Part shown: piece by piece, positions 5,331 to 51,883 of the stretch
How positions within the stretch are numbered: position 1 is the stretch's first letter
How the letters are laid out: every line of letters starts with the position of its first letter
NCBI GenBank assembly: GCA_051362555.1
Contig: CM120649.1
Span: forward strand, 7,688,001-7,752,000
DNA: 64,000 nucleotides
Direction of reading: 5' to 3'
DNA from: Lingula anatina
Lineage: Eukaryota; Animalia; Brachiopoda
Position numbers and translations under genes: made by a program
Notes under the pieces: generated by a model
What the model was told of the DNA's origin: nothing
Database searches by the model: none
The model's input: only the letters and a program-made list of their open reading frames with translations

Positions 5331-8300
5331 CTAATGACACTTTTTGGCTAAATCTTCCATAATATTGACTGTCCTTATGGTAGCGGGGTCTTTGGGACTA
5401 AGTATCTCCTCTCTCAGTGCAAGACATTTTTTGTGATAATCAAGTGACTCTTTATACTCGCCCATGTCATGCAGTGTGTTCCCGATGTTGTAGTAGGAGC
5501 CGGCAGTATCGGGGTGTTTGGGACCAAGTGTCTCCTCTCTCAGTGCAAGACATTTTTTGTGATAATCAAGTGACTCTTTATACTCGCCCATGGCATGCAG
5601 TGTGATACCGATGTTGTTGTAGGAGCTGGCGGTATCGGGGTGTTTGGGACCAAGTGTCTCCTCTCTCAGTGCAAGACATTTTTTGTGATAATCAAGTGAC
5701 TCTTTATACTCGCCCATGGCATGCAGTGTGATACCGATGTTGTTGTAGGAGCTGGCGGTATCGGGGTGTTTGGGACCAAGTATCTCCTCTCTCAGTGCAA
5801 GACATTTTTTGCAATAATCAAGTGACTCTTTATACTCGCCCATGGCATGCAGTGTGATACCGATGTTGATGTAGGAGCTGGCAGTATCAGGGTGTTTGGG
5901 ACCAAGTGTCTCCTCTCTCAGTGCAAGACATTTTTTGTGATAATCAAGTGACTCTTTACACTCACCCATTTTCTGCAGTGTGTTCCCGATGTTGGTGTAG
6001 GAGCTGGCGGTATCGGGGTGTTTGGGACCAAGTGTCTCCTCTTTCAGTGCAAGACATTTTTTGTGATAATCAAGTGACTCTTTATACTCGCCCATGGCAT
6101 GCAGTGTGATACCGATGTTGGTGTAGGAGCTGGCGGTATCGGGGTGTTTGGGACCAAGTGTCTCCTCTCTCAGTGCAAGACATTTTTTGTGATAATCAAG
6201 TGACTTTTTAAACTCACCCATGGCCTGCAGTACATTACCGATGTTGTTGTAGGAGTTGGCGGTATCAGGGTGCTCGAGACCAAGTATCTCCTCTGTCAAT
6301 GCAAGACATTTTTTGTGATAATAAAGTGACTTTTTTAACTCACCCATGGCCTGCAGAACAGTACCGATATTGTTATAGGAGGCGGTGGTATCTGGATGCT
6401 TGAGACCAAGTATCTCCTCTCTCAGTGCAAGACATTTTTTGTGATAATCAAGTGACTTTTTAAACTCACCCATGGCCTGCAGTACAGCACCGACATTGTT
6501 GTAGGAGCTGGCGGTACCGGGGTGCTTGGGACCAAGTATCTCATCTTTCAATGCAAGACATTTTTTGTGATAATCAAGTGACTCTTTAAACTCACCCATG
6601 GCCAGCAGTACATTACCGATATTGTTGTAGGAGCTGGAGGTATCAGGGTGTTTAGGTCCACGTATCTCCTTTTTCAATGCAAGACTTTTTTTGTGATAGT
6701 CAAGTGACTTTCTATACTCACCCATGGCCCGCAGTACAATACCGATATTGTTGTAGGATGTGGCGGTATCAGGGTGCTTGAGACCAAGTATCTCCTCTCT
6801 CAATGCAAGACATTTTTTGAGATAATCAAGTGACTGTTTATACTCACCCATGGCCCACAATACAGTACCGATATTATCGTAGGAGGTGGCGGTATCAGGG
6901 TGCTTGAGACCAAGTATCTCCTCTCTCAATGCAAGACATTTTTTGTAATAATCAAGTGACTCTCTATACTCACCCATGGCCTGCAGTACATTACCGATAT
7001 TGTTGTAGGATGTGGCGGTATCGGGGTGCTTGGGACCAACTATTTTCTCTCTCAATGCAAGACATTTTTTGAGATAATCAAGTGACTGTTTATACTCACC
7101 CATGGCCTGCAGTACAGTACCGATATTGTTGTAGGAGGCGGCGGTATCGGGGTGCTTGGGACCAACTATTTTCTCTCTCAATGCAAGACATTTTTTGAGA
7201 TAATCAAGTGACTGTTTATACTCACCCATGGCCCGCAATACAGTACCGATATTGTCGTAGGAGGCGGCGGTATTGGGGTGCTTGGGACCAAGTATCTCCT
7301 CTCTCAATGCAAGACATTTTTTGTGATAATCAAGTGACTCTTTATACTGACCCATGGCCTGCAGTATATTACCCATATTGTTGTAGGAGGTTGCAGTATC
7401 GGGGTGCTTGGGACCAACTATTTCCTCTTTCAATGCAAGACTTTTTTTGTGATAATCAAGTGTCTCTTTATACTGACCCATGACCTGCAGTACAGCACCG
7501 ATATTGTTGTAGGAGTTGGCGATATCGGGGTGCTTGGGACCAAGTATCTCCTCTCTCAATGAAAGACATTTTTTGTGATAATCAAGTGACTCATTATACT
7601 TACCCATGGCCTGCAGTACATTACCGATATTGTCGTAGGAGTTGGCGGTATCGGGGTGCTTGGGATCAAGTATCTCCTCTTTCAATGCAAGACATTTTTT
7701 GTGATAATCAAGTGACTTTTTAAACTCACCCATGGCCTGCAGTACATTACCGATATTGTCGTAGAGGCCGGCGGTATCGGGGTGTTTGGGGCCAAGTATC
7801 TCCTCTTTCAGTGCAAGACTTTTTATGAGATAATCAAGTGACTCGTTAAACTCACCTATTTCGTGCAGTAAAATACCGATATTGTTGTAGGAACTGGCGA
7901 CATCGGGGTGTTTGGGACCTAGAATTTTAACCTTTTCATGTGACACCGATTTGTAAATATGTAAAGCATCCTTGTAGAGACAAATGCGACAAAAAGTCTC
8001 TGCAATCATTGCTAATTTATCTACACTTTCCAATCTTTCAGATGCATCTTGAGCTTCTATACTTTTAGTTAATAAAGCAGCAGTTTGTTTGATATGTGGT
8101 AACATCAAGGATAAATGATTTGCATCGGTGGCATTAAAATACTCCATTTTAAACCCTTTGAGAGTTTCTATATAATGACTGCAAAAAGCATTTTGGATAT
8201 CAAAAATATAATCGCCATATTCCTGGGCATTGTATTCTGCATATTCCCTTAGTAAAGGGTGGACATCATAGATGTTACTATCTGTACTAATGAGCGATTT

Positions 8301-9472
8301 ATTGACAAGAAGGTCTAGGATATGTTCACAATGATTTTGATCTAACCCTAAAATAACAGAGACTTCTTCCAGGTTAAAAGCAACAGGGAATATATGTAGT
8401 GCAACAAACACCTTTCTCGCCTCCGTTTCTAATGTTTTATAAGAAATATCAAAGCAAGTTTTGATTTCTTCTGGCATGCTGGGAATGGAAAGAGTGGGTA
8501 GCATCTTCTGAGTTTTAAATGTCTCTAATACTGCTTCTGTTTCTTTTTTGTCAAGCAGTGCAGCTAGCAATTTTAATGCAAGGGGGTTATAGCCGCACAT
8601 TTCTGCCATTTCATCTAAGTTCGCTAACTCGCTGTCGGTGGGACTGGTTGATTTTCGTTCCCATAGGACGTCACGCGAGGAGCTTTTATCAAGTTTATCA
8701 ATGTCTAACACAACTATGTTATGTGTTGTGAAATCAAACCTTTCACGACTGGCGCATAACAAACTGATATGTTTTGTTGAATCCATTACATCCTTCAAAA
8801 AATCACTAAACTCCTTCCTATTTGAACTTAAAAAAGACTCATTATTATCTAGGATAAATAGGGTATCAGTAGTCAAACTAGACAAAGTCTGTTTGAATAT
8901 GTTTTGGTAATCAGAGTATAAGTCTTTCAAATGACGTGTTGGGTGATAATGTTGGACAAGCGATAACTTGACAGAATTAAGATCTGTCACTTGTCTCATA
9001 TCAATGTACAGCACGTTTTGCATGCTTTGTCCGACCTTAACTGCTATGCTGGTCTTACCGATACCCCCCATCCCGGTCAGGAGAATGAGTGGAGCTTTAT
9101 CCCTGATATGTTGCTGTATCGTGGTAATGATGTCATCACGACCCTTCAGATCTGTGTTTATTCTTGGTAATGTCGTGGACAGCAGCTGGCAAGGGGTTTC
9201 TGAAAAGATTGCTGAACAATTTAATTTCTAAAAATAAGAAATTGTGAATGCATTTTAATATTGGGCCACCATATTTTTGAACACTATATTTTTGAACACT
9301 ATGTCTGAAAATATACAGCTGGATTGTCAGTGACATGTTAACAATAGTGTTATTAGAATATGAAATTAGTATCACTGCAATTGGTTTTGTCTGTGCTTTT
9401 ATACATGTGACTCAACGCTTTTATATTTATATTTATATCCTCTGTTTTTGTTTTTGTGTACCTTCGCCTGTA

Positions 9473-9512
<40 letters not shown>

Positions 9513-10154
9513 AACGCACACTTGCATTCATATTTTAATCAGTTCTGGTTGTAAAGATGTGAAATATTAAATATTGTGCGGAAATCTACCAGAAGCATCC
9601 AGTGGCTGGATCAGCACCTTGTCGTAGTCATCGCTAGTGTATAATGTTGACAGAGACAGCAGAATAGTTTTCAGATCAGCGAACTGGGTCTTGAAGTCTG
9701 CATCTGAGAGACCTCCTTTATTGTGAGCGAGTTCATTGCGGTATCCCTTCACCCTGCCGATGTTGGCCTCAGTTGAATTGTCCGTGGCAGGAGGTTTGTT
9801 CCATTTTGCATGAGGATTCAAGTTTGTGATATTTCTCAATAAGATTACAGCCAGGGTTATATCCAAGTCCTGCAATGTCACAGGAGGGGCGGGGCTCCCA
9901 GGGGGATATAGAATATCTATTTGGCTGGGGTTCAAAATGTTCCTTCTTTTTAGTCTGAGTAATGAGTGTTTGACTGTTTGGTCATTTAGGACATCAGATA
10001 TCACGCCATTATTTGATGGTCCATACAGCCCTGGATATTGTACTTGTAACTGGTTACTGAGAACATCTTGAAGTACTAGGTTTCCATGATCCAGTAATAG
10101 GTCCATGCGGAAACGGTTTTCTTTCTTCTTTCGTGCAATATTAACGCTGGTCAT
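5331..10154 (-). CDS. NLR-like gene copy 1: HEPN (DZIP3-type) + NB-ARC/STAND NTPase + 20 TPR repeats; two coding exons (10154-9590, 9199-5331), about 1477 aa
   Basis: Phase-1 GT-AG intron 9589-9200 joins ...LDAS to ETPCQLLSTTLPRINTDLKGRD in frame; spliced length 4434 nt is divisible by 3. HEPN signature LYPP..DLDITL..LLRNI..W..P..YRNELAH; Walker A GMGGIGKT; Walker B LFILDN; sensor CASRE; CGYNPLAL (GxP); YDVHPLLREYA (MHD-like); 42-aa KHPDTAxSYxNIGxxL repeats. Confidence 0.9.
5394..7913 (-). repeat. Coding tandem array of 20 x 126-bp TPR (42-aa, TPR_12/nephrocystin-3-like) units
   Basis: 20 consecutive [K/E]HP units counted in the translation; 20 x 126 nt = 2520 nt matches the coordinates exactly. 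Confidence 0.95.
9590..10154 (-). CDS. HEPN_DZIP3-like RNase effector exon of NLR-like copy 1
   Basis: RNELAH (Rx4H) at 9740-9723; donor G|GTAGAT at 9590/9589; acceptor tttcag just before AAATG. Confidence 0.85.
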
Positions 10155-19365: not shown

Positions 19366-22340
19366 CTAAACAATTGAACAAAATGGTACACGATCTCTAT
19401 GATAATATTTTACCAAAAATTCAATAACACTGATTGTTCTGACAGTATCATGGTGTTTGGGACCAAGGACCTCCTCTGTCACTGCAAGGCATTTATTGTA
19501 ATAATCAAGTGCCTCTTTATATTTACCCATATACTATACAGTGCATGGCCAATGTTGTTGTAGGAGTCTGCTGTATTAGGGTGTTTATGACCGAGTATCA
19601 CCTTTCTTAATGCAAGACTTTTATTGTGATAAACAAGTGACTCTTTATACTCACCCATGTCTTGCAGCACAAGACCTATATTATTGTAAGAACTGGCGGT
19701 ATCGGGGTGTTTGGGACCAAGTATCTCCTCTCTCAATGCAAGACATTTTTTGTGATAATCAAGTGCCTTTTTATAATAGCCCAAGGCCCGCAGAACATTA
19801 CCGATATTATTGTAAGAGCTGGCGGTATCGGGGTGTTTGGGACCAAGTATCTCCTCTCTCAATGCAAGACATTTTTTGTGATAATCAAGTGCCTTTTTAT
19901 AATAGCCCAAGGCCTGCAGTACAATTCCGATATTGTTGTAGGAGCTGGCGGTATCGGGGTGTTTGGGACCAAGTATCTCCTCTCTCAATGCAAGGCATTT
20001 TTTGCAATAATCAAGTGACTCTTTATACTCACCCATGGCCAGCAGTACACTACCGATATTGTTGTAGAAGGCAGCGGTATCAGGGTGCTTGAGACCAAGT
20101 ATCTCCTCTCTCAATGCAAGACATTTTTTGTGATAATCAAGTGACTTTTCTAACTCACCCATGGCCTGCAGTACATTACCGATATTGTCGTAGGAGACGG
20201 CGGTATCGGGGTGTTTGGGGCCAAGTATCTCCTCTCTCCATGCAAGGCATTTTTTGTAATAATCAAGTGACTCTTTATACTTACCCATGGCCTGAAGTAT
20301 ATTACCCATATTGTTGTAGGAGGTTGCAGTATCGGGGTGCTTGGGACCAAGTATCTCCTCTGTCAATGCAAGACATTTTTTGTGATAATCAAGTGACTCT
20401 TTATACTGACCCATGGCCTGCAGTATATTACCCATATTGTTGTAGGAGGTTGCAGTATCGGGGTGCTTGGGACCAACTGTTTCCTCTTTCAATGCAAGAC
20501 TTTTTTTGTGATAATCAAGTGACTCATTATACTTACCCATGGCCTGCAGCACATTACCGATATTGTTGCAGGAGTTGGCGATATCGGGGTGCTTGGGATC
20601 AAGAATCTCCTCTTTCAATGCAAGACATTTTTTGTGATAATCAAGTGACTTTTTAAACTCACCCATGGCCTGCAGTACATTACCGATATTGTCGTAGGAG
20701 CCGGCGGTATCGGGGTGTTTGGGGCCAAGTATCTCCTCTCTCAATGCAAGACTTTTTATGAGATAATCAAGTGACTCGTTAAACTCACCTATTTCGTGCA
20801 GAAAAATACCGATATTGTTGTAGGAACTGGCGACATCGGGGTGTTTGGTACCTAGAATTTTAACCTGTTCATGTGACACCGATTTGTAAATATGTAAAGC
20901 ATCCTTGTAGAGACAAATGCCATAAAAAGTCTCTGCAATCATTGCTAATTTATCTACACTTTCCAATCTTTCAGATGCATCTTGAGCTTCTATACTTTTA
21001 GTTAATAAAGCAGCAGTTTGTTTGATATGTGGTAACATCACGGATAAATGATTTGCATCGGTAGCATTAAAATACTCCATTTTAAAGCCTTTGAGAGTTT
21101 CTATATAATGACTGCAAAAAGCATTTTGGATATCAAAAATATAATTGTCATATTCCTGGGCATTGTATTCTGCATATTCCCTTAGTAAGGGGTGGACATC
21201 ATAGATGTTACTATCTGTACTAATGAGCGATTTATTGACAAGGTCTAGGATATGTTCACAATGATTTTGATCTAACCCTAAAATAACAGAGACTTCTTCC
21301 AGGTTAAAAGCAACAGGGAATATATGTAGTGCAACAAACACCTTTCTCGCCTCCGTTTTTAATGTTTTATAAGAAATTTCAAAGCAAGTTTTGATTTCTT
21401 CTGGCATGCTGGGAATGGAAAGAGTGGGTAGCATCTTCTGAGTTTTAAATGTCTCTAATACTGCTTCTGTTTGTTTTTTGTCAAGCAGTGCAGCTAGCAA
21501 TTTTAATGCAAGGGGGTTATAGCCGCACATTTCTGCCATTTCATCTAAGTTCGCTAACTCGCTGTCGGTGGGACTGGTTGATTTTCGTTCCCATAGGACG
21601 TCACGCGAGGAGCTTTTATCAAGTTTATCAATGTCTAACACAACTATGTTATGTGTTGTGAAATCAAACCTTTCACGACTGGCGCATAACAAACTGATAT
21701 GTTTTGTTGAATCCATTACATCCTTCAAAAAATCACTAAACTCCTTCCTATTTGAACTTAAAAAAGACTCGTTATTATCTAGGATAAATAGGGTATCAGT
21801 AGTCAAACTAGACAAAGTCTGTTTGAATATGTTTTGGTAATCAGAGTATAAGTCTTTCAAATGACGTGTTGGGTGATAATGGTGGACAAGCGATAACTTG
21901 ACAGAATTAAGATCTGTCACTTGTTTCATATCAATGTACAGCACGTTTTGCATGCTTTGTCCGACCTTAACTGCTATACTGGTCTTACCGATACCCCCCA
22001 TCCCGGTCAGGAGAATGAGGGGAACTTTATCTCTGATATGTTGGAGTATTGTGGTAATGATGCCATCACGACCCTTCAGATCTGTGTTTGTTCTAGGTAA
22101 CATCGTGGAGAGCAGCTGACAAGGGGTTTCTGAAAAGGTTTCTGAACATAAAAATCTAAAAACAGGAAACTGTTAACACATTTTTCACCTTGTGGTGGCC
22201 ATATTTAACACTTTTATATATGAAAATATACAGCTGGAGTGTCAGAATCTTTTAACATTAGAATGTTATAAGAATATGGAATCATTATCTCTGCCATTGT
22301 TTTTGCCTGTGCTTTTATAAATGTGACTCAACGGTGTGTG

Positions 22341-22373
<33 letters not shown>

Positions 22374-23021
22374 TTGTGTGTGTGTTTTTATTAGCTCTGG
22401 TTGTATTGATGTGAAATATTGAATATTTTGCAGAAATCTACCTGAAGCGTCCAACGGCTGAATCAGCAAATTGTCGTAGTCGTCACTAGTATTCGATGTC
22501 GACAGAGACCGCAGAATAGCTTTCAGATCATCGAACTGGGTCTTGAAGTCTGCGTCTGAGAGACCTCCTGTTCCGTGAGCGTGCTTATTGCGGTATCCCT
22601 TCACCCTGCCGATTTTGGCCTCTGTAGAAGTGTCCGTGTCTGGAGCATTGTCCCATTTTGCATGAGGATTCAAGTTTGTGATATTTCTTAATAAGATTAC
22701 AGTCAGGGTTATATCCAAGTCGTGCAATGTCACAGGAGGGGCAGGGTTCCCAGGGGGATAGAGGATATCCATTTGACTTCGATTCAGAATGTTTCTTCTC
22801 TTCACTCCCCTCGTCTTTAAACTGAGTAATGTATGTTTCACATTTTTGTCATTTAGGACATCAGATATCACGTCATTACTTGATGGCCCATACAGCCCTG
22901 GATATTGTGCTTGTAACTGGTTACTGAGAACACCCCGAAGTACTAGGGTAGCACGTTCCAGTAGCAGGTCCATGCGGAAACGGTTTTCCTTCTCTTTTCT
23001 AGGAATTTCCCCAGTGGCCAT
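19366..23021 (-). CDS. NLR-like gene copy 2: HEPN + NB-ARC + 10 TPR repeats plus a frameshifted 11th; exons 23021-22442 and 22129-19479, about 1076 aa as sequenced (ancestral stop at 19366)
   Basis: Same phase-1 intron (22441-22130); RNKHAH at 22592-22575; NTPase nearly identical to copy 1; an extra 2 nt near 19531 shifts repeat 11 out of frame. Confidence 0.88.
19459..20846 (-). repeat. Coding tandem array of about 11 x 126-bp TPR units (copy 2)
   Basis: 10 full units at 20846-19587 plus an 11th interrupted by a +2 frameshift. Confidence 0.93.
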
Positions 23022-26480: not shown

Positions 26481-28585
26481 TCTTCCTATTTTTTGCATTA
26501 AAAGACGTGATATTTTGTTTGAACAAATTCCCAGAAAATTTAACGACGGAGTTTATACATGGTCAAGACTGTGTTTGATTGGATAAGCAGCGGTCGCTCT
26601 AAAATATATAACCAAACTACGTTTTTCTGTGGGTGGCGTTCATGTATTCCAGTTCACGTAGAGAGAAGCAAGAACTACTTGTACTTGTCCTGTTGATATC
26701 AACGAGTTACTTGCTGGAAAAAATTCCACGAAGCTTGAAGTTGCAAAATCGTGCACGTGCTTATTTTCAGTCACCTTGTTTTCTAACAACTTTCTGCATC
26801 GACCGACAGCGCGACCAAGTACGACACAGGAGAAAAATAATGCCAATCCTTAAAACGTTGTCATAATTATTCGATTTTTGCATGAATGCAGTCTGTTATG
26901 CCCATATTTAATTATTGTTTGGTGTTTCATGGTAAGTGCTGCAATTAAAACAATGTTTTAGGGTCCCTAAAAGACCTTTAAAAACTTTGCATATGTGTGT
27001 GTGTGCTTGTGTGTGTCTTTGTGTGTGTGTCTCTCTCTCTGTGCTTTTAATTAAGTTTTATGATTGGACAGTGCGTCTTTAACACAGTCATTTTCCCCGT
27101 ACGCATTTTAGTCCTGCATAACGTAGTGTGGCTGTTTGAAATTGACTGCCAGTTTCTTCTGACAATTGTGGAAGAATTGAATTGTGGAAGAAATTCTCTC
27201 ACGCCGGAGACAAAATCCTTTTATTTTCATTATTTTAGTTGCATCACAAGATTAATATGGGCGGCCCACAGGGCAAAAATTCATGACGATGTTGGACATG
27301 TCCAAAAGATTCTACGAATAGCCTGCGAACAGCAAGGCCTCAAGCGTAACTTGCTCCCCTCGCAAGGAGTTAGCAAGAGAGACGCGCGTTGTGCAAGACG
27401 CACGTCGCAAGCAATGAAGAAGCAAGTGCTCTCACAACTAACGAACAAAGTCGAGAGCACACCGGGAATGCGTCGCACGTGCGTCATCCCCCGGCTGGTG
27501 TATAAAAGGCGTGCTGAGGACGCACGCTCATATCTTTACAAAGAACATCGACTGTGTAACGTGTACAACAATTTTCAAAATTTTCTAATTTTTGCTCAAT
27601 TTAGTATCTAATATGCCTCCAAGGGGCAAAAGAAAGAACCTTACATAGTAGAAAAAGGGAGGAGGAAGAAGAAAGAAAAGGAGAACAGGAAGCAAAACTG
27701 ACGCACGCCGTCAGTACGTCACCACGTCAACGTGCCAGGAAAGTGTGAAGCAAAACTGACGCAAAAGGGCACTACTTTCGCCGTGCGGTCATCGCTCCTT
27801 GCAATTAGCGCCCGTGCTTGAAAGGACATCTCATGTGGCCCTTGCGACTCGCAAGGCAGATTTTCTTCTACCTCTACGACCTCCTCGGCCTCCGCAACAC
27901 CCAAAATTCGCAGGGGACGTACATGTAAGATCCTGAAATTCGTGCGTCCGGTTGTGACCGAGGTTTACAGGATCGACGAAAATAGACGATTGACGAGAAT
28001 AGTTAGACGATCGACGAAAATAGCGAGAGAATTGGTTTTGGTACACCGTAGATGAGAAATGTTTGACAATTGAAATGACAAGAATAGATGTTGAATTTAT
28101 GATAGGTTAAGATAGGTTTAAACTTGAAACTGAATCGATGGGAAGGCAGTGAATCGACGAAACATAACTGAATCGACGTCATAAATTTTGCCCTTTTGGC
28201 CGCCCATAGATTCACATGCCATATTTATAATATTCCCCACGTCTCAGATCATTTTTGGTACTAAATTAAACACCTATTACATGTTTTCTCTATGAGAATT
28301 AGTGTGTTTTAGTTGCCCTAACGCTGTGCTGTAAATACTGTGTCAATACACAAACACGACAATACCTGCACGCGAACTTATTGATCTTATAGTTGTTTGT
28401 CAGTGCGCTTAGATACACGTATCAGCGCCTAAATAATAGTGAAAGAAGGAAGTATACATTTTAAGCAAGGAGCCTGATTACAAATCTAGAAAAAATCTAC
28501 ACTGCATCTTCAAGTGTCTTTAACCCTTTTAATGTGATAATAGCTAGACTATATCATGAACATATAGCATGTATATTGAACTTAC

Positions 28586-32064: not shown

Positions 32065-32981
32065 AGAGTTTGTGTAGCTTACGACAGGATAGAGTTTGTG
32101 TTGCTTATTAATTGAAAGGATACAATTTGTGTAGCATATGTTGTTAAATTGACAGAATTCAATTTGTGTAGCTAACGTTGTCAGTTTACGGGATAGAATT
32201 TGTGTAGCTTATGTAGTTAGCAGATATAATTAGTAGTTATTAGTGATATTGGAATTTTTGAAAAGCTTTGTGTATGGCTGAGTGAGAGTTGGAAAGATAG
32301 TGACACGTGTTAGTCGGGACTTGTTGCAAGACGCGAACTAGTCGGAACATATTGCAGTGATATTTCATTTTTATTGTTGTTTGATACTCGCGGCAATTTA
32401 GTAAATATTGTCAAAGTAGCATTCATTTTAGTACTTTAGAGATATTTTGTATTAATTTTCTGTTGTGATACTACAATTGCAGAGACATTGTGAACCACGT
32501 GTAGTGAGTAGTAGTCGGACAGACCACGTGTAATTACAGGCCCGTGCGCACAGAGCCTTATGTTGTAATTAGAATACAGAACATAATTTAGTGAGTTTAT
32601 TTACAAAGAAAAGCATTTATTTAAAATAAAGGTTTCAAATTTGTGTTTTTCACTGACTTGCTGAATGAAGGAGTGAGTGTGAATTGTTTATTGTATATTT
32701 TTATCAATATTGCAATAGCATATATTGATAGAGTACTATTCTACCTTGTTCGTCTGTGTTGAAAGTGTTTCATCATAGGTGTACATGTGAGTAGGTTGAA
32801 TAGTGTGAGAAATTTGTTTGTATTTACTGTGAAGTTTAGTAGTGGCTTTTTTGCTGAAACTTTCTTCAAACAGTAAAGTGTGGTAGTGGTGAAAGTATTT
32901 TATTGTGTAGTTTTTGTGGCACAGCTGCATTGCTATTATCAATAAAATTGTGTAATAGGTTGTGGGAAACTAGAAGTGAAA

Positions 32982-34946
32982 ATGGCGTCGGGTAGTGTAG
33001 AAAGTAGTGTTGTGTTGAATGTGCAGACAGCGTCTGAGACAGAATTGAAAAATTTGAAAGGAATTGGTCCAGTGAAAGCTCATAGATTGGTGTCTTTGAG
33101 AAATCAAAAAGGAAAATTGCTGTTGAGTGATTTGGAAGAAATTACTGGTATTAGTGTAGCAGAATGGCAGAAATGGGAAAAGAAGGGTAATGTGATTCTG
33201 GGTGTAATGGAAGAAAAAGATGAAGGTTCAAAAGTTGGAGATGAGAAAAAGGAAGAGAGTGTGAATTGGGAAGAAAAGTATAGAAAGTTGATGGAGCGAG
33301 TGAAGGTACAAAATGAAATGATATCAAATCTTCGAGATGAGGTTGAAGAAGCGGGAGAAAAGATGGAATTTTTATCAAGTGAATTGGAAATAAATGATGC
33401 TAAAGTGAAAAAGTTGGAAAATGAAAAGAGTGAATGGGAAAAAGAGAAATATGCTTTGGAAAATGAAAAGTATAGTTTGGAAAATGAGAAGTGTGATTTG
33501 AAAAATGAAAATGATATGTTGAAAGAAAGAAATGTGAAAATTCAGAGTGAGTTGGGAAAAACTAAACAAGTGTTGATGAAAAAAGAAATGGAAATGGAAG
33601 AAGAGTGTAGAGAGTATTCCACAAAAGAAATGATGTTACATGCTCAGGTTGAAACACAGAATGAATTGTTGAGAAAACGAGTAGAAAGTTTGCAGAAGTG
33701 TGAAATTGAAAAAATGGATTTGAAATTGCAATTGGATGAAATGACAGCACGTCATAATCATTTGCAAACTCAGTATGAAAGAATGCATTTACAGCATGAT
33801 TTAGAAAAAATCCCAAGACCAACTCCTAGAGATATTAAAAGTAGTAGACCCACACCTGCACCTAGAAGTAGTAAAAAGAAAAGTTTGGAAACCCCTGTGA
33901 AAAAACCAATACTGAAACTAGCAGAGAGTGAAAGTGATAGCGAAAGTGAAAGTGAATCTGAATGTGAACAGAAAAGAGTTCCTTTAGTTGAAAGAGAAAA
34001 AGGACCTGTTCATAAAATGCCTAGTTTTAGTGGGAATGGAAGAGAAAACTGGGAAGCTTTTGTATTTAAGTTTGAAGGAATGGCAGAAAGATATGGATGG
34101 AATGATAAAAGGAAAACTAGCAGAATGATTGAATGTTTGGAAGATAGAGCTCTTGAGTATGCGGTGGAGTTTGGAAATTGCAAATATAAACGTTTGAAAG
34201 AAGTGATGTCAAAACGTTTTAGTATGAAAGAGTCTGCTTCATCTGCACGCAGAGCACTTCAATCAATGAGGCAGGGTGAAAGTGAATCTTTGCAAGATTT
34301 TGCTCATCGTGTGTTCATGGCATCTAGAGAGGGATATACAGAAGGTGGTGAAGGAATAGCTGTGGATTCATTTTTAAGAGGGTGTCGTGACAAAGAATCT
34401 GCAAAATTGGCTATGGATAAAGAGCCTAAAGATTTATTTGAAGCGTTAGAGTTTGTGAAAGTTGCAAACAATAACTTCAAAGCAGTGTATGGTACAGGTG
34501 GAAGAAATGTGCATATTAGACAAGTTGGAATGTCTGATCAGAGTGTGGAGAATGGAAGTGGAAATCAATTACTCTACAACATGCAAAGAACCATGTCTGC
34601 AATGTGTGATCAGATGAAAAGAATGAATGACGCATGGGTGTCACCGTCGAATTCTCAGAGAAATTCTGGTAGAATGGTAAAGTCGCCCCAGAATGGAAAC
34701 ATAAATCAAAGTAGAGGGGGTCCACCACAATGTTTTAAATGTGGAGAAAGAGGTCATGTTCAAAGGGATTGTAAGAATGAAAATGTAGAACATCCACCTA
34801 ATCCCAATGTTAGTAAAAATGCCAGCCCAAGTTCTATTTTGATTTGTAATAAATGTGGACAAAGAGGTCACATTCAAACAAATTGCCCTCAAAATAGAGA
34901 AATGCCAAAGAATCCTCCTCCCGGTGCAAGAAATTCGGTAAACTAG
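32982..34946 (+). CDS. gag: Gag with N-terminal helix-hairpin-helix, coiled coil, capsid-like region and two CCHC knuckles
   Basis: LNVQTASETELKNLKGIGPVKA (HhH); FSGNGRENWEAF..F...W; RQGESESLQDFAHRV; CFKCGERGHVQRDC and CNKCGQRGHIQTNC. Confidence 0.92.
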   Translation: MASGSVESSVVLNVQTASETELKNLKGIGPVKAHRLVSLRNQKGKLLLSDLEEITGISVAEWQKWEKKGNVILGVMEEKDEGSKVGDEKKEESVNWEEKYRKLMERVKVQNEMISNLRDEVEEAGEKMEFLSSELEINDAKVKKLENEKSEWEKEKYALENEKYSLENEKCDLKNENDMLKERNVKIQSELGKTKQVLMKKEMEMEEECREYSTKEMMLHAQVETQNELLRKRVESLQKCEIEKMDLKLQLDEMTARHNHLQTQYERMHLQHDLEKIPRPTPRDIKSSRPTPAPRSSKKKSLETPVKKPILKLAESESDSESESESECEQKRVPLVEREKGPVHKMPSFSGNGRENWEAFVFKFEGMAERYGWNDKRKTSRMIECLEDRALEYAVEFGNCKYKRLKEVMSKRFSMKESASSARRALQSMRQGESESLQDFAHRVFMASREGYTEGGEGIAVDSFLRGCRDKESAKLAMDKEPKDLFEALEFVKVANNNFKAVYGTGGRNVHIRQVGMSDQSVENGSGNQLLYNMQRTMSAMCDQMKRMNDAWVSPSNSQRNSGRMVKSPQNGNINQSRGGPPQCFKCGERGHVQRDCKNENVEHPPNPNVSKNASPSSILICNKCGQRGHIQTNCPQNREMPKNPPPGARNSVN

Positions 34947-34957
34947 AACGGGACGAA

Positions 34958-37900
34958 TTGACCGACCGGATTTCGGATCCCTTACTTCATGTTGAAGGTC
35001 GGATTATGGATAGTGGAAATGTGAAAATGATGAATGTTGGAGAGTTAGTAGGAGAAAATTTTGTGATTCCTGTTAGTGTAGGTGGTGTGAAAACATTAGC
35101 AGTTGTGGATACGGCAGCTCAATTTACTATCGTAAATAAAAGATTTTATAGTAAATTGCAGGGTGTGCCTGAGTTTTGTGAGACTCTGAAATTAATGCTT
35201 GCTGGAAAAAATGCATTTATGATGGGTCATAGAGTAGAAAATTTGAGTATTGAGATAGATGGGATAGAATATAAGGAAAATGTGTATGTTGCAGATTTGC
35301 AAGAAGGAATTGATATGTTGTTGGGATTGAAGTTTTTGAAGGAGAGAAATTGTGTGGTGAATTTAGTTGATCAAACATTGATCATTGGAGAAAAATGTGT
35401 GCAGGGAAGCATAGAAGTTGAAGGTGACTCTGATTTGAGTAAAGTGAATGGTGAGACAGAAGCTAAAAGTGATGAGAAATGTATTGATGAAATGGAGAGA
35501 GAAGTTGAACATTGTGAAAATATGGTGAGAACGAAAAAGAGAATAGTAGTTCCTCCATTGACGGTGATGAAAATTTCTGTTTGTGCAGATTATGAGTTAG
35601 AGAAAAAGAAAGAGTATGTGATAGAACCTTGTGTTGATAGACAAGTGTTGGTATCTTGTGCATTAGTTAAAGGTGATGATGTTGTTCCTATAGAGATAGT
35701 GAATGATGGAGAAAGAAATGCTGTTTTGAAAGCAGGTAGTGTGTTAGGTGTTATTAAGGAAGTTGAGACAGTTGATTCTGAAGTGAGATGTGAAGATGTA
35801 GATGGAAAAGCTAGGGTGTCTGCTGTGAATAAAGTTGAAATGAAGTTGAATATAGATGAAAATGTGGATAAAGAAGTGATGAGAAGTTTGAAAAGAGATT
35901 TGCCTGAACATTTGCAAGATTTATTTGAAAGATCAAGTGAGGAGCTTGATTCAAATGAAATGGTTGCATTGTGTGAAACTTTGAGAGATTATGAAGATGT
36001 ATTTGCAAAGCATGATCTTGATTTAGGGTGCATGAAAGGTGTTAAACATACTATTAACACTGGTAGTGCAGCTCCTGTGAAACAGAAATTGCGTAGAACT
36101 CCATTGGGAATGGAAGGAGAAGAGAGAAAGATGCTTGAAAAGTTGTTAGCTTCTGATGTTATTCAGCCATCAAATTCTGAATGGGCATCCCCACCAGTAT
36201 TGATAAGAAAGAAAGATGGAAGTGTTAGATGGTGTGTGGATTACAGGGAATTAAATAAGAAAACTATCAAAGATTCTTATCCTATTCCAAACATTGGTGA
36301 TTGTTTAGATTGTCTGGCTGGAAATCAGTTTTTGAGTTTGATTGATATGGCTCAAGGATATTTTCAAATTGAAATTGATGAGAAAGACAGAAATAAAACT
36401 GCTTTTATCACCAGGTATGGTCTGTATGAGCATAAGAGAATGGCTATGGGACTTACCAATTCTCCTGCAAGTTTTTCAAGAGCAATGCAGTTAGTATTGA
36501 GAGGTTTGACTTGGGAGAAAGTGTTAGTGTATCTGGATGATATCACAGTGTTGGGAAAGAATTTTGAAGATCATCTTAAGAATTTGAAAGAGGTTTTGGA
36601 GAGATTGCGTTCTTACAACTTGAAGTTAAAGCCTAAGAAATGTTTTCTTTTCCAAACAAAGTGTGAATTCTTAGGAAAGTCGATTAGTAGAGAAGGTGTT
36701 GGTATAACTGAGAGTAAGATTGATTGTGTTAGAAAGTGGCCAGTACCTACAAACAAAAAGGAAGTTGAAACATTCCTTGGTTTCATCAATTATCATAGAG
36801 ATCATATTCCTCAATTTGCTGAGAAAACTGCTTGTTTGTATGAGTTGACAGGGAATAAAAGTGTTTTCAATTGGTCAGATGAACATCAAATAGCATTTGA
36901 AAGTTTAAAACAAGAGTTAACAACTGCCCCTTGTTTAGCCTTTCCTTTGTCTGAAGGTGAATTTATACTTGATACAGATGCATCATATTCATGTATAGGA
37001 GCAGAACTTTCACAGATACAACATGGTGAAGAGAAGGTTATTGCTTATGGAAGTAAAATTATGTCACCTATACAGCGGCGTTATTGTACAACTAGAAAAG
37101 AGCTCTTGGCTGTTGTAAACTTCTGTAGACAATATAGACATTATTTGTTGGGAAGAAAGTTCAGAATCCGAACAGATCATCATAGTTTAGTGTGGTTGTT
37201 AGGATTTAAAAACCCAGATGGTCAGTTAGCAAGATGGTTAGAAGAATTATCTCAGTATAATTTTACCATTGAACATAGACCAGGAAAGAAGCATGGAAAT
37301 GCAGATGCATTATCAAGAATACCTTTAGTTATGAAAGTGTGTGATTGTTATAAAGTTGGAGTGAAATTGAGTGACTTACCCTGTGGAGGATGTCATTATT
37401 GTCAGAGAGTACATAAAAATTGGTCAAGGTTTGAGACTGATGTGAATGATGTAATTCCTCTGGGAAATAAGAAATCAGATGACAATGTAGTTGAATCGAA
37501 TGCAGTTGGTGATATGAAGAATGAAACAAATTGTGAGAAATTGAGTTCAGTTTTGATGTGTCAGAGGGCTGATACAAATGATAAAACTGACAAGAATGAA
37601 AGAGATGAATTATGCAATTGGTTGAAAGGATATGACTTGAAAAAATTGCAGAGAAAAGATGCAGATTTGAAAATAATCATAGGTTGGTTAGAGAATGGTG
37701 AACCTAAAGAATCAGAGTTGTATTTGTGTAGTATGGCAGTAAAAGGATTGTGGAATTGCAAAGAGCAATTGATTCTTTTGAATGATGTGTTATATTACAA
37801 ATGGGAAAAGAGAGAGGATAGAAATTTGTGTTTAATAGTACCAAAAGATTTGGTCAACGAAGTTTTATTTTTCTGTCATGATTCAAAAACAGCTGGTCAT

Positions 37901-38911
37901 TTTGCTTATGAGAAAACTTTGCAAAAACTCAAACAATCATTCAAGTGGCATGGAATGAATAGAGATTGTAAATTGTATGTAAGTTCATGTGAACTTTGCA
38001 ATAAAAACAAGCATAGTACTGTTCGACCAAAAGCCAAAATGAAATTACATCATGCAGGATTTCCTATGGAAAAGGTTCATTTAGATATACTTGGACCATT
38101 TACACAAAGTGAATTTGGAAATTCTTATATTTTGGTTATGATAGATCAGTTTACTAAGTGGATAGAATGTGTGGCATTGCCAAATCAGACAGCTGAATTA
38201 GTAGCAAAAGCATTTTTTGAAAAATTCATAGTTACTTTTGGTTGTCCACAAGAGATATATACAGATCAAGGTTCAAATTTTCAAAGTAGTCTATTTAGAA
38301 ATTTGTGTAGACTATTAGAAATCAAACAACTTAGAACAACTGGTTTTAGAGCAAGTGCTAATGGACAAGTTGAAAGATGTATGGGTATTATTACACAGAT
38401 GATTAGATGTAATGTAGAAGGGAATGTGAGATATTGGGATAGAGATTTACCTCAATTAGTTATGGCATTACATTCAACTGTGAATGCATCAACTGGATTT
38501 ACTCCTAACATGATGATGTTAGGGAGAGAAGTTTTTATGCCATTACACTTACTAACAGGTTGTGTGAATGAAAATTTGATACCATGTGATACTCATGAAT
38601 GGTTAAAAAACTTGAGTGAAAGCCTAAATAGATCGCATGAAATGGCTAGAGAAAAATTGAAATGTGTGCAGAAACGTCAAAAACAATTGTACGATGCAAA
38701 GTTGAGAGAGAATGAATATACTTGTGGTCAGAAAGTATATTTGAAGGATGAAAGTCATAAAAAGGGAGAAAGTAAGAAACTTAGACCCTTATATAGAGGA
38801 CCATATGAGGTTATCAAAGCATCCCCACCTCTCTATACAATAAAAGATAAAAAAGGAAAAATCCAAGTGGTACATCATGATAGATTGAGAAAATTTGTTG
38901 AAAGAGAGTGA
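34958..38911 (+). CDS. pol: Pol polyprotein (protease, RT, RNase H, integrase), -1 frame relative to gag
   Basis: AVVDTAAQ protease; WASPPVLIRKKDG and YLDD in RT; LDTDAS and TDHHSL in RNase H; HHCC (HDSKTAGH..CELC); DDE (HLDILG, TDQGSNF, NGQVER); YRGPYEV. Confidence 0.97.
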   Translation: MTDRISDPLLHVEGRIMDSGNVKMMNVGELVGENFVIPVSVGGVKTLAVVDTAAQFTIVNKRFYSKLQGVPEFCETLKLMLAGKNAFMMGHRVENLSIEIDGIEYKENVYVADLQEGIDMLLGLKFLKERNCVVNLVDQTLIIGEKCVQGSIEVEGDSDLSKVNGETEAKSDEKCIDEMEREVEHCENMVRTKKRIVVPPLTVMKISVCADYELEKKKEYVIEPCVDRQVLVSCALVKGDDVVPIEIVNDGERNAVLKAGSVLGVIKEVETVDSEVRCEDVDGKARVSAVNKVEMKLNIDENVDKEVMRSLKRDLPEHLQDLFERSSEELDSNEMVALCETLRDYEDVFAKHDLDLGCMKGVKHTINTGSAAPVKQKLRRTPLGMEGEERKMLEKLLASDVIQPSNSEWASPPVLIRKKDGSVRWCVDYRELNKKTIKDSYPIPNIGDCLDCLAGNQFLSLIDMAQGYFQIEIDEKDRNKTAFITRYGLYEHKRMAMGLTNSPASFSRAMQLVLRGLTWEKVLVYLDDITVLGKNFEDHLKNLKEVLERLRSYNLKLKPKKCFLFQTKCEFLGKSISREGVGITESKIDCVRKWPVPTNKKEVETFLGFINYHRDHIPQFAEKTACLYELTGNKSVFNWSDEHQIAFESLKQELTTAPCLAFPLSEGEFILDTDASYSCIGAELSQIQHGEEKVIAYGSKIMSPIQRRYCTTRKELLAVVNFCRQYRHYLLGRKFRIRTDHHSLVWLLGFKNPDGQLARWLEELSQYNFTIEHRPGKKHGNADALSRIPLVMKVCDCYKVGVKLSDLPCGGCHYCQRVHKNWSRFETDVNDVIPLGNKKSDDNVVESNAVGDMKNETNCEKLSSVLMCQRADTNDKTDKNERDELCNWLKGYDLKKLQRKDADLKIIIGWLENGEPKESELYLCSMAVKGLWNCKEQLILLNDVLYYKWEKREDRNLCLIVPKDLVNEVLFFCHDSKTAGHFAYEKTLQKLKQSFKWHGMNRDCKLYVSSCELCNKNKHSTVRPKAKMKLHHAGFPMEKVHLDILGPFTQSEFGNSYILVMIDQFTKWIECVALPNQTAELVAKAFFEKFIVTFGCPQEIYTDQGSNFQSSLFRNLCRLLEIKQLRTTGFRASANGQVERCMGIITQMIRCNVEGNVRYWDRDLPQLVMALHSTVNASTGFTPNMMMLGREVFMPLHLLTGCVNENLIPCDTHEWLKNLSESLNRSHEMAREKLKCVQKRQKQLYDAKLRENEYTCGQKVYLKDESHKKGESKKLRPLYRGPYEVIKASPPLYTIKDKKGKIQVVHHDRLRKFVERE

Positions 38912-39696: not shown

Positions 39697-40045
39697 ACCT
39701 AACACGGTTACACTGTTCAAACTAATATGTTGCAGTTTAGCATGTGTTTTGCATGTAATCGGATTGGAGGTTGTCAAGGTAATAATTATTTTCTTTTTGC
39801 ACATTTTGATGATGGTATTTTACTTGGGGATTTGGTATAAAAGTAATATTTGTACATAGTTAATGCGGCAATGCTGTGTTACTATATTAGTAATGTAATA
39901 CTATGTTAGTAATTAATGAAATACTGTTTATGCTGTAATACTATGTTAATAATGTAAAATTATGTTAATATTCATTTGAAAGAAAAGATCATTATCATGT
40001 ATGTTCATTCAAGAAAATAAACCATTGTATAAGTTTATTTCAGAT

Positions 40046-40714
40046 ATGGATGATCTAGACATGCTAGATGAAGCTTGTTTTGTCCCGGATTATAATGACA
40101 CTGATTTGGTGGAAGATCCTACTGTCCTAATTGGTGAAGAGGGGGAGGAAGTTACCCACTCAAAGTGCAGAGGGGAGAAACGGAGGAGAGAAGTCCAGTG
40201 TGGTTTGTGTCTGGTGTCCAGTGCTGACCTAAGTAGACATCTTGGACGTCATGTGAAATCTGTTCATTTGCCATGGTATATGACTCCAGGATTGGTGTGC
40301 TGGTATTGCAGATCGATGGAGAAGGACAATTCGCTTTTACGTAAATGTCATGGTGATGTTCATTCGTGTGGAACTGGTGAATTCGAGGAAAAACTGTGGA
40401 TCCAATTGGTGAATGGATTTTTACATTTCCTCATCTTAACATTAAATATGAGAAATATATGGGAGCTGATGGACTATGTGAAAAGTGAAGGACTAATAAT
40501 GTTGCCAGATAACTGTTCCAATGAGGACATTAACTTTGTGAAAATATACATTCATGGAAATGGTATAGAGCATAAGACTGAGATTCTAAATTCTTGGTTG
40601 ACTTTGTTTCACTGGAGAACTTTGTATCATCTGTTACAAAAACTTTCATCGGAGGATCGTGAACTCAGTAGTCATTGGTATCGGAGGATGGAATTTACTT
40701 TGCTACATGGATGA
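40046..40714 (+). CDS. Accessory ORF4 of the Gypsy element (Cys/His-rich, putative zinc-binding)
   Basis: CGLC..RHVKSVHLPWY..P..VCWYC..CH..H; ATG at 40046 lies 2 nt after acceptor tttatttcag (40043). Confidence 0.6.
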   Translation: MDDLDMLDEACFVPDYNDTDLVEDPTVLIGEEGEEVTHSKCRGEKRRREVQCGLCLVSSADLSRHLGRHVKSVHLPWYMTPGLVCWYCRSMEKDNSLLRKCHGDVHSCGTGEFEEKLWIQLVNGFLHFLILTLNMRNIWELMDYVKSEGLIMLPDNCSNEDINFVKIYIHGNGIEHKTEILNSWLTLFHWRTLYHLLQKLSSEDRELSSHWYRRMEFTLLHG

Positions 40715-50603: not shown

Positions 50604-51408
50604 GGAGAACGGGCGAAAATCCATGCGCGCGCAGGATGTCATCCATAAAATTAAAAAAGTGTGGCCTTACCTGACATATCTACAGACCTAGAAGGATAAA
50701 GCCCCTTGAAAATATTATGCCCAGTCCCTCCCTACCTCCTCCTGCTGGGTATGATGCCCAGTCCCTCCCGACCTCCTCCTCCTGCTGGATATGATGTCCA
50801 GTCCCTCCCTACCTCCTCCTCCTGCTGGGTATGATGCCCAGTCCCTCCCTACCTTCTCCTGCTGGGTATGATGCCCAGTCCCTCCCGACCTCCTCCTCCT
50901 GCTGGATATGATGCCCAGTCCCTCCCCACCTCCTCCTGCTGGGTATGATGCCCAGTCCCTCCCTACCTCCTCCTGCTGGATATGATGTCCAGTCCCTCCC
51001 TACCTCCTCCTCCTGCTGGGTATGATGCCCAGTCCCTCCCTACCTCCTCCTGCTGGATATGATGCCCAGTCCCTCCCTACCTTCTCCTGCTGGGTATGAT
51101 GCCCAGTCCCGCCCTACCTCCTCCTGCTGGGTATGATGCCCAGTCCCTCCCTACCTCCTCCTCCTGCTGGGTATGATGCCCAGTCCCTCCCTACCTCCTC
51201 CTGCTGGGTATGATGCCCAGTCCCTTCCTACCTTCTCCTGCTGGGTATGATGCCCAGGCCCTCCTCCTTCCCGTCTGGCAGGATCCTCTTGGCCTGCCAC
51301 CACTCATCATCGCTGGCATTGGTGACGTGGAGAATGTCTCCATACCTGAACTCCAGACCCTCCCGCGGCAGACCACTGTCCTTAGAAGGGTCATAATCAA
51401 AGAGGGCC
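42864..51408 (-). CDS. dlg1: Discs large 1 (MAGUK), 3' exons encoding SH3-HOOK-GK
   Basis: GT-AG exons 51408-51232 ([24 protein letters not shown]), 49485-49419 (VERKERAK), 49068-48945 ([14 protein letters not shown]3-like), 47575-47549, 45315-45268 (VLTYEPV), 44850-44749 ([17 protein letters not shown]), 44252-44080 ([17 protein letters not shown]), 43768-43659 ([16 protein letters not shown]), 43420-43329, 42970-42864 (..IWVPSKEKL*). Confidence 0.95.
45075..45240. repeat. 29-bp minisatellite, about 6 units, in a dlg1 intron
   Basis: aatgtgttaggtgtgacagtgtctgtaag units. Confidence 0.85.
49677..50666. mobile_element. Non-autonomous PIF/Harbinger-like element in a dlg1 intron
   Basis: About 35-bp TIR GGCCACACTTTTTTA.TTTTATGGATGACATCCT and its reverse complement; TTA TSD at 49674-49676 and 50667-50669. 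Confidence 0.88.
50712..51231. repeat. 37/40-bp minisatellite derived from the dlg1 SH3 exon end and donor (about 13-14 units)
   Basis: Unit atgatgcccagtccctccctacctcctcctgctgggt matches the exon sequence encoding [10 protein letters not shown] plus GTAG. Confidence 0.9.
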
Positions 51409-51715
51409 CTAGATGAAAGAATTAAGATCAAATCATTAATACTGCATATTTCCAAAGCTGCATGTGTGAAAACAACCCTTTTCCAGCTATCAATCATAAA
51501 TGTGCTGCTCACAGTCGGACACAGTAAGGAAAAGGGTCCAAGGAGGAAGTTATCCAAAATAACTAGGATACCAATGACTGCTCTTATATTTAAGGTGGAA
51601 AATTTTATTTGCTGTAATGCTAAGCAGATCTCAGAAGTCTCCTTGAGTAAAGACATTGTACATGCAGTGAAGTGTGTGTGTGTGTGTGTGTGTGTGTTTG
51701 TGCACAAACTTGTAT

Positions 51716-51883
51716 CAGGGGCGGATTTAGGCCGTCTTCTGGGTCTTTCGGAAGACGGTCAGATTTTTAAGTTTACATTGACGGGTATCTAAGTTTTTCT
51801 GTCGGAAGACGGTCAAAAATGGAGGATGGATTAACAAAGATAATTTGGAAGACTGTCAGAAAATATCTCTGGATCCGCCCCTG
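51716..51883. mobile_element. MITE with CAGGGGCGGAT termini and 5-bp TSD
   Basis: tgtat|caggggcggatt ... gatccgcccctg|tgtat. Confidence 0.8.

Follow-up and report, generated by a model that had tools for sequence, protein, structure and literature searches.

The locus studied here raises a question of function: why does one protein carry 20 TPR units that resemble one another closely and differ chiefly at a few positions? A preliminary description had read the array as a four-position variable code on a near-invariant scaffold, that is, a modular and shuffleable recognition surface loosely analogous to the TALE and PPR codes, for a peptide, glycan, or nucleic acid ligand. The window analyzed is a stretch of 64,000 nucleotides of Lingula anatina DNA. 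Published work is cited here from excerpts of the papers concerned.

Gene architecture and expression

The array belongs to a spliced gene on the minus strand that encodes a HEPN(DZIP3)–NB-ARC–20×TPR protein of 1477 aa without internal stops, and the tripartite layout of effector, NTPase, and repeat sensor is found in a single reading frame. The first coding exon (9590..10154, minus strand; ATG at 10154) encodes a DZIP3/hRUL138-like HEPN domain, a predicted RNase effector (PF18738, E=9e-35). Its Rx4H motif, RNELAH (9723..9740, minus strand), read from the sequence, is intact and putatively forms an RNase active site of the type described in PMC9646362; the exon has both the PF18738 domain and the Rx4-6H motif of DZIP3-like HEPN domains. 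A GT-AG phase-1 intron of 390 nt (9200..9589, minus strand) separates HEPN from NB-ARC. Four RNA reads with four starts (run X14) skipped exactly 9200-9589, and the same junction sequence is present in P0001.

The second part of the protein is an NB-ARC-type STAND ATPase with a winged helix and a helical arm (7914..9199, minus strand; PF00931, E=1.9e-6, 27.8 bits against a cut-off of 23.5). Besides the winged helix, reading of the sequence revealed the motifs of a STAND NTPase: Walker A, GMGGIGKT (9051-9074, minus strand); Walker B, ILDNNE; a GxP-like motif in the GLPL-like YNPLAL; and the MHD-like DVHPL. A structure predicted for NB-ARC plus four repeats (pLDDT 83) had as its best fold match the archaeal STAND-TPR protein 6mfv (E=2.7e-12), followed by KLC and Apaf-1 (E=1.9e-8); NRC was also a fold match. 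The array itself (5394..7913, minus strand) consists of 20 units of the kinesin light chain (KLC) type, each of exactly 126 bp (42 aa), with variable groove sites at 7, 10, 14, 17, and 18 and an invariant Asn11. It is closed by a capping segment with the stop codon (5331..5393, minus strand) that resembles the C-terminus of P0002.

RNA support was low: three runs, examined to 6%, 6%, and 25%, yielded 0, 4, and 77 reads, respectively; no RNA read of run X11 matched. Because 68 of the 77 reads were only 90-95% identical, they probably derive from paralogues.

Several other features were seen in the window. A sulfotransferase ORF (PF03567; 81-1034, plus strand) lies downstream of the receptor gene. 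A Gypsy-type LTR retroelement with two long open frames occupies 32946-38911 (plus strand), within a region of strong G skew (32-42 kb), and in its gag-like ORF the zinc knuckles are preceded by an initial helix-hairpin-helix motif (PF12836). Two ORFs had no Pfam match: 27051-27611 (plus strand, 186 aa) and 39980-40714 (plus strand, 244 aa), the latter just after the retroelement. An SH3-encoding stretch (51228-51758, minus strand), which adjoins a 37-bp tandem array (50713-51264), resembles an exon of a DLG/MAGUK gene.

Variation among the repeat units

All 80 residues that the preliminary description had listed at positions 7, 10, 14, and 17 of the 20 units were correct, as were its additions from the second gene copy described below, where D7, H14, and Y17 belong to a frameshifted 11th unit. 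These are the four columns of highest entropy in copy 1 (2.15 bits at position 7, 1.85 at 14, 1.79 at 17, and 1.67 at 10). The claim stands in this respect, but "four" is too strong, as the fall-off is gradual: columns 15, 24, 22, 29, 36, and 18 follow at 1.40-1.12 bits with no clean gap, and position 15 exceeds position 10 once both copies are pooled. The term near-invariant scaffold was also overstated. Only 12 of the 42 columns are invariant, the four sites hold 29% of the total entropy (71% lies outside them), and mean pairwise identity is 76% in amino acids and 87% in nucleotides. High internal conservation (HIC), defined in PMC4986451 as >85% identity over at least 100 aa, is nevertheless present, with 96% identity in the best 100-aa window inside the repeat domain, even though the whole-array mean is lower. 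Units A18 and A19 are identical, and Asn11 is invariant in the 30 units of both copies (30/30).

The four sites may not assort independently: positions 7 and 14 and positions 14 and 17 are associated (p=0.014 and 0.018, uncorrected). CpG decay seems an unlikely origin for them, as the consensus has its CpGs in codons 3-4, 5-6, and 12-13 (nt 9, 15, and 36). Short-read assemblies do not reliably give the order of units in arrays of this kind (PMC12222747).

Positions 4, 29, and 36 were consistently variable in paralogues and in unrelated arrays. Unit position 4 equals canonical TPR position 33; positions 36 and 29 score as selected in the codon models for this array, and the two may form a second variable surface.

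Relatives and generality of the pattern

Homologues of the ATPase region numbered 74; the best 12 were L. anatina proteins (40-85% identity), and all others had at most 31% identity. A HEPN domain was present in 11 of the 12, and Walker A likewise in 11 of 12. Columns were ranked in the nine of these proteins with at least six units, the three with fewer being omitted; the pool of 101 paralogue units keeps eight units from two of those three. Mean entropy ranks in the nine arrays were 2.4 for position 7, 2.9 for 14, 4.4 for 17, 5.2 for 18, 5.8 for 36, and 8.8 for 10, so that position 18 outranks position 10 in the paralogues. Across these independent arrays, a fraction of only 5.4e-5 of the 111,930 possible four-column sets rank as high as 7/10/14/17.

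The search with the repeat region gave 3649 matches at E<=1e-60 among 7996 scored candidates, and the named matches outside Lingula were mostly bacterial. We compared 115 of the 116 non-Lingula arrays. Position 14 was among the six columns of highest entropy in 100 of them, position 17 in 92, position 7 in 88, and position 18 in 71; position 10, found there in 16, replicates poorly outside copy 1. The column pattern was the same in the 33 arrays whose internal identity is at least 70%, and the same sites vary in arrays joined to CHAT, kinase, and phosphorylase domains. Since the same sites lead the ranking in nine Lingula paralogues and 115 unrelated arrays, variability at 7, 14, 17, and 18 is a generic property of the repeat type. 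Nothing peculiar to this protein is supported, these sites being variable in nearly every 42-aa TPR array examined.

Spirochaetes provided NACHT-TPR proteins with very similar arrays, including P0120 (Leadbettera), P0084 and P0100 (Treponema), and other matches; the units of P0120, which are 85% alike, have their variation at the same positions.

Position of the variable sites on the TPR fold

The preliminary description had placed the sites on one face of helix A, lining the ligand groove. In the array model (pLDDT 91, the best of five, of which three failed), helix A comprises unit residues 3-18 and contains 7, 10, 14, and 17. The fold matches of this model were OGT, consensus TPR, APPBP2, LGN, and KLC. 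KLC is the closest repeat type among solved structures (E=5e-53), and peptide complexes are numerous among the nearest sequences and folds with solved structures (KLC, LGN/Pins, OGT, APPBP2).

When the units were aligned to the consensus TPR, unit position equaled TPR position plus 5. Unit positions 7, 10, 14, 17, and 18 correspond to TPR positions 2, 5, 9, 12, and 13, and the invariant Asn11 to TPR position 6. In TPRs, variability is greatest at positions 2, 5, 9, 12, 13, 33, and 34, all of them peptide-contacting positions of the concave face, and Asn6 contacts the peptide backbone (PMC1261162). The "code" sites are textbook TPR specificity positions because they equal these published hypervariable concave sites. 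By homology through this alignment, the four sites would sit in the ligand groove and the variable sites of the array on the concave face, in support of the proposed variable recognition surface on helix A.

Recombination between and within two tandem genes

A second tandem gene (copy 2) lies 14 kb from copy 1. It has a HEPN exon (22442..23021, minus strand; PF18738, E=4e-31) with an intact RNKHAH motif, an NB-ARC region that differs by 2.3% from that of copy 1 (20847..22129, minus strand), and a TPR array of 10 whole units and a frameshifted 11th (19461..20846, minus strand). The net 2-nt frameshift is near 19535 in the 11th unit, and the copy-2 frame closes at 1076 aa. A THAP-domain ORF (PF05485; 13782-14180, minus strand), probably a piece of a P-element-like transposon, lies between the two receptor genes.

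Divergence between the two copies amounts to 14.9% for the HEPN exon, 18.1% for the intron, and 33% for the 3′ cap. In contrast with these diverged parts, most of NB-ARC (16 nt over about 1120 nt) and units 1-2 are nearly identical, from which we infer a recent gene-conversion tract at 7662..9039 (minus strand), with its partner in copy 2 at about 20595-21969. The unit pairs A1/B1, A2/B2, and A5/B4 differ by 3, 3, and 1 nt, and the other 17 units of copy 1 are 9-18 nt from their best match in copy 2; only 3 of 20 units have a partner within 3 nt, despite the low NB-ARC divergence. The pattern points to older paralogues with a recent conversion tract, their distal repeats turning over independently. 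The mosaic identity of the two genes could also stem from a chimeric assembly.

The units also recombine with one another: 380 of 1485 site pairs were incompatible (PHI-like p=0.0014), and adjacent units were more alike than distant ones (rho 0.48; 0 of 5000 permutations). Repeats are thus shuffled and exchanged within and between genes, and the idea of shuffleable modules was borne out by both the recombination within units and the conversion between the two genes.

Selection on the groove codons

Codon models were fitted to the 29 unique units among the 30, one of the identical pair A18/A19 being dropped and the frameshifted unit of copy 2 omitted. M8 was favored over M8a (p=0.0015, omega 2.1; top sites 14, 17, 7, and 36), and the M1a/M2a comparison gave p=0.011. 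For the five groove sites chosen a priori, omega was 2.6 under a single synonymous rate, 1.8 with separate rates for the halves of the unit (p=0.014), and 2.8 with a separate rate for the groove (p=0.008). All six fixed-class tests favored omega >1, and p in the groove-site tests ranged from 0.014 to 1.6e-5. The other codons of 1-20 had an omega of 0.2-0.3, and the value of about 1.5 for codons 21-42 means that the excess extends beyond the groove.

Standard tests of selection are inflated here because the units recombine. In neutral simulations with six independent recombining segments, the observed statistic was reached in 6 of 149 cases, and omega at the groove was 1.7. Other nulls, in which an M1a/M2a statistic of 9.0 was attained by 1 in a set of 25 and by 2 in a set of 22, were judged by the threshold of a different tree (6.03, with 5.12 observed) and gave shorter trees; the six-segment simulation is the calibration to rely on. 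A tree-free count put nonsynonymous variation at the four codons at 1.8 times the unit-wide synonymous level (p=0.03); within these codons themselves, where numbers are small, there were 2.76 synonymous against 1.98 nonsynonymous alleles per site. Positive selection, which marks HIC receptors, is thus nominally significant, at about p=0.04 against recombination nulls, and the local synonymous count points the opposite way. Omega of about 1.7–2.8 at the groove leans toward an elevated dN/dS at the sites but is marginal once recombination is allowed. Diversifying selection at the groove sites is likely, though weakly shown.

Synonymous diversity was about 2.5 times higher in codons 1-20 (the helix-A half) than in codons 21-42 (the helix-B half). 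It could reflect old groove alleles kept under balancing selection while helix B was homogenized, or a mutation bias on C-ending codons.

Alternative explanations

A code of the TALE or PPR type needs a small set of recurring words. Such a code would have positions 7/10/14/17 of each repeat read one nucleotide or sugar and direct the HEPN RNase to the sequence that the array spells out, and to this we give hardly any credence. The units are exchangeable, the predicted RNase is fused in the same protein, and N, Q, S, and T, the most frequent residues at the four sites (78 of 116), recall those of the PPR code. A small recurring set of words on an otherwise fixed repeat was not what we found, however: there were 21 four-letter words in the 30 units of the window and 96 in the 101 paralogue units, in an open alphabet of 15-17 amino acids per site in paralogues. 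The generic nature of these specificity sites, which vary in the CHAT, kinase, and phosphorylase fusions as well, also speaks against the four-position code that had been proposed, and none of the 24 Pfam matches was to a PPR or TALE family (TPR_12 and TPR_10 were the top ones). A nucleic acid ligand is disfavored by the composition of the groove, where 174 residues include 66 Asn, 10 D/E, and only 4 K/R; this composition is more in keeping with an Asn ladder that holds an extended peptide than with a nucleic acid track, and the residue aligned with Asn11 contacts the peptide backbone in other TPRs (PMC1261162). Fungal WD40 receptors arrive at the same specificity with different combinations of repeats (PMC12222747), which is the opposite of a strict code. 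A broader version, which we regard as very improbable, is a recombination-driven animal receptor library of interchangeable TPR modules, each reading a stretch of peptide (less likely one base), reshuffled between tandem genes and wired to the HEPN RNase. If true, it would imply a learnable and programmable recognition code, possibly with variation among the animal's own cells.

Relaxed constraint, by which the genes would be redundant birth-and-death paralogues whose repeats are kept alike by unequal crossing-over while exposed groove residues drift neutrally, is in our view unlikely. It would account for the modest calibrated omega at the groove and the 6 of 149 nulls that match it, the high synonymous diversity in codons 1-20, the omega of the second half of the unit, the frameshift in copy 2, and the low expression. 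It does not agree with the recurrence of the same top columns in nine Lingula and 115 unrelated arrays, the strong constraint on adjoining helix-A codons, the six fixed-class tests, and the long open frame of copy 1 with its intact motifs. A nonimmune protein comparable to kinesin light chain or nephrocystin-3, acting as a scaffold or cargo adaptor with variation that tunes binding to fixed host partners, would suit the closeness of the repeats to KLC and the automatic names of some relatives (nephrocystin-3-like or TPR28-like). We consider it quite improbable, because the array shares its protein with a STAND ATPase and a HEPN domain, the family numbers at least 12 Lingula proteins with differing arrays, and the quick turnover of repeats would not be favored by a fixed partner.

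Proposed function

The array is probably the C-terminal domain of an NLR-like immune sensor, with groove-variable, recombining repeats, a predicted protein ligand, and a HEPN RNase switch. We regard the gene as an animal member of the high-internal-conservation NB-ARC–TPR receptors known from fungi and brown algae. At rest, the sensor would be autoinhibited, as are STAND-TPR proteins (PMC6468293). A foreign protein, or a polymorphic self or allo protein, would bind in the TPR groove, where the Asn11 ladder may hold an extended peptide and residues 7/10/14/17/18 of several adjacent repeats may jointly set specificity. By analogy with other STANDs, binding would lead to nucleotide exchange and oligomerization; the HEPN domains, brought together, would dimerize and cleave RNA, and the likely result would be cell death or antiviral shutdown. 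Bacterial STAND-TPR sensors recognize phage proteins and switch on nucleases (PMC13581612).

If this reading of the array as an immune sensor holds, the locus is a concrete animal example of the receptor diversification known from fungi, coupled to a predicted RNase. It would also be a compact test system, with a single exon to handle, >100 naturally occurring repeat variants, and nuclease activity as the read-out. The finding overturns nothing established: the variable sites, the repeat type, the HEPN-STAND-TPR architectures of marine invertebrates, and animal HIC receptors are already in print. Our literature searches found no repeat-level analysis for Lingula, and the main paper on Lingula immunity (PMID 29278680) may already cover the family. 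The available text of PMC13449251 mentions neither Lingula nor HEPN; the supplements of PMC4986451 and PMC13449251 may list Lingula proteins.

Comparison with known systems

Likeness to the TALE and PPR codes is limited to similar tandem helical repeats with few variable residues; the array here differs in having no small alphabet, basic groove, family match, or support for one repeat per ligand unit. The published TPR groove positions describe variation between proteins with 34-aa repeats (PMC1261162), and here the variation is among the 42-aa repeats of one protein.

Prokaryotic STAND–TPR proteins (PH0952/MalT, PMC6468293; Avs, PMC13581612) share the best fold match, 6mfv, and in them binding of a foreign protein triggers oligomerization and a nuclease effector; sequence identity to these sensors is only about 25% or less. 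Among animals, corals have many HEPN-led NACHT/NB-ARC proteins, those with NB-ARC typically carrying TPRs (PMC10236652), HEPN-NACHT proteins are expanded in pearl oysters (PMC9646362), and the NB-ARC genes of placozoans, 39 in number, end in WD40 or TPR repeats (PMC6321704). The coral NB-ARC–TPR and pearl oyster NACHT proteins share with the Lingula gene a DZIP3-like HEPN with Rx4-6H on a STAND receptor, as well as TPR sensors and tandem expansion in marine invertebrates. The excerpts of these coral and oyster papers give domain architectures and copy number, to which the Lingula analysis adds repeat-level variation, selection, and conversion.

In the brown alga Ectocarpus, NB-ARC–TPR genes have 42-aa TPR exons under shuffling and selection (PMC3341825). 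The units of 126 nt/42 aa and the shuffling are shared, and diversifying selection is likely, though weakly shown, in Lingula; each algal repeat is its own exon, whereas the Lingula gene has the whole array and NB-ARC in one exon. Closest in regime are the fungal NLRs (Podospora Pa_2_10340 and others; PMC4986451, PMC13449251), as the preliminary description had suggested. The fungal NB-ARC-TPR receptors have internally conserved repeats with three positively selected sites, all variable sites being on the concave face of a KLC-based model (PMC4986451), and TPR repeats are exchanged between genes in such receptors, which are stated to occur in animals (PMC13449251). The effector–NB-ARC–TPR layout, KLC-like and internally conserved repeats, variable concave-face sites, and exchange of repeats between genes are common to both, and selection on the concave face, established at the fungal sites, stands here at the margin given above. 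What sets the Lingula receptor apart from its fungal counterparts is its animal host and its HEPN effector.
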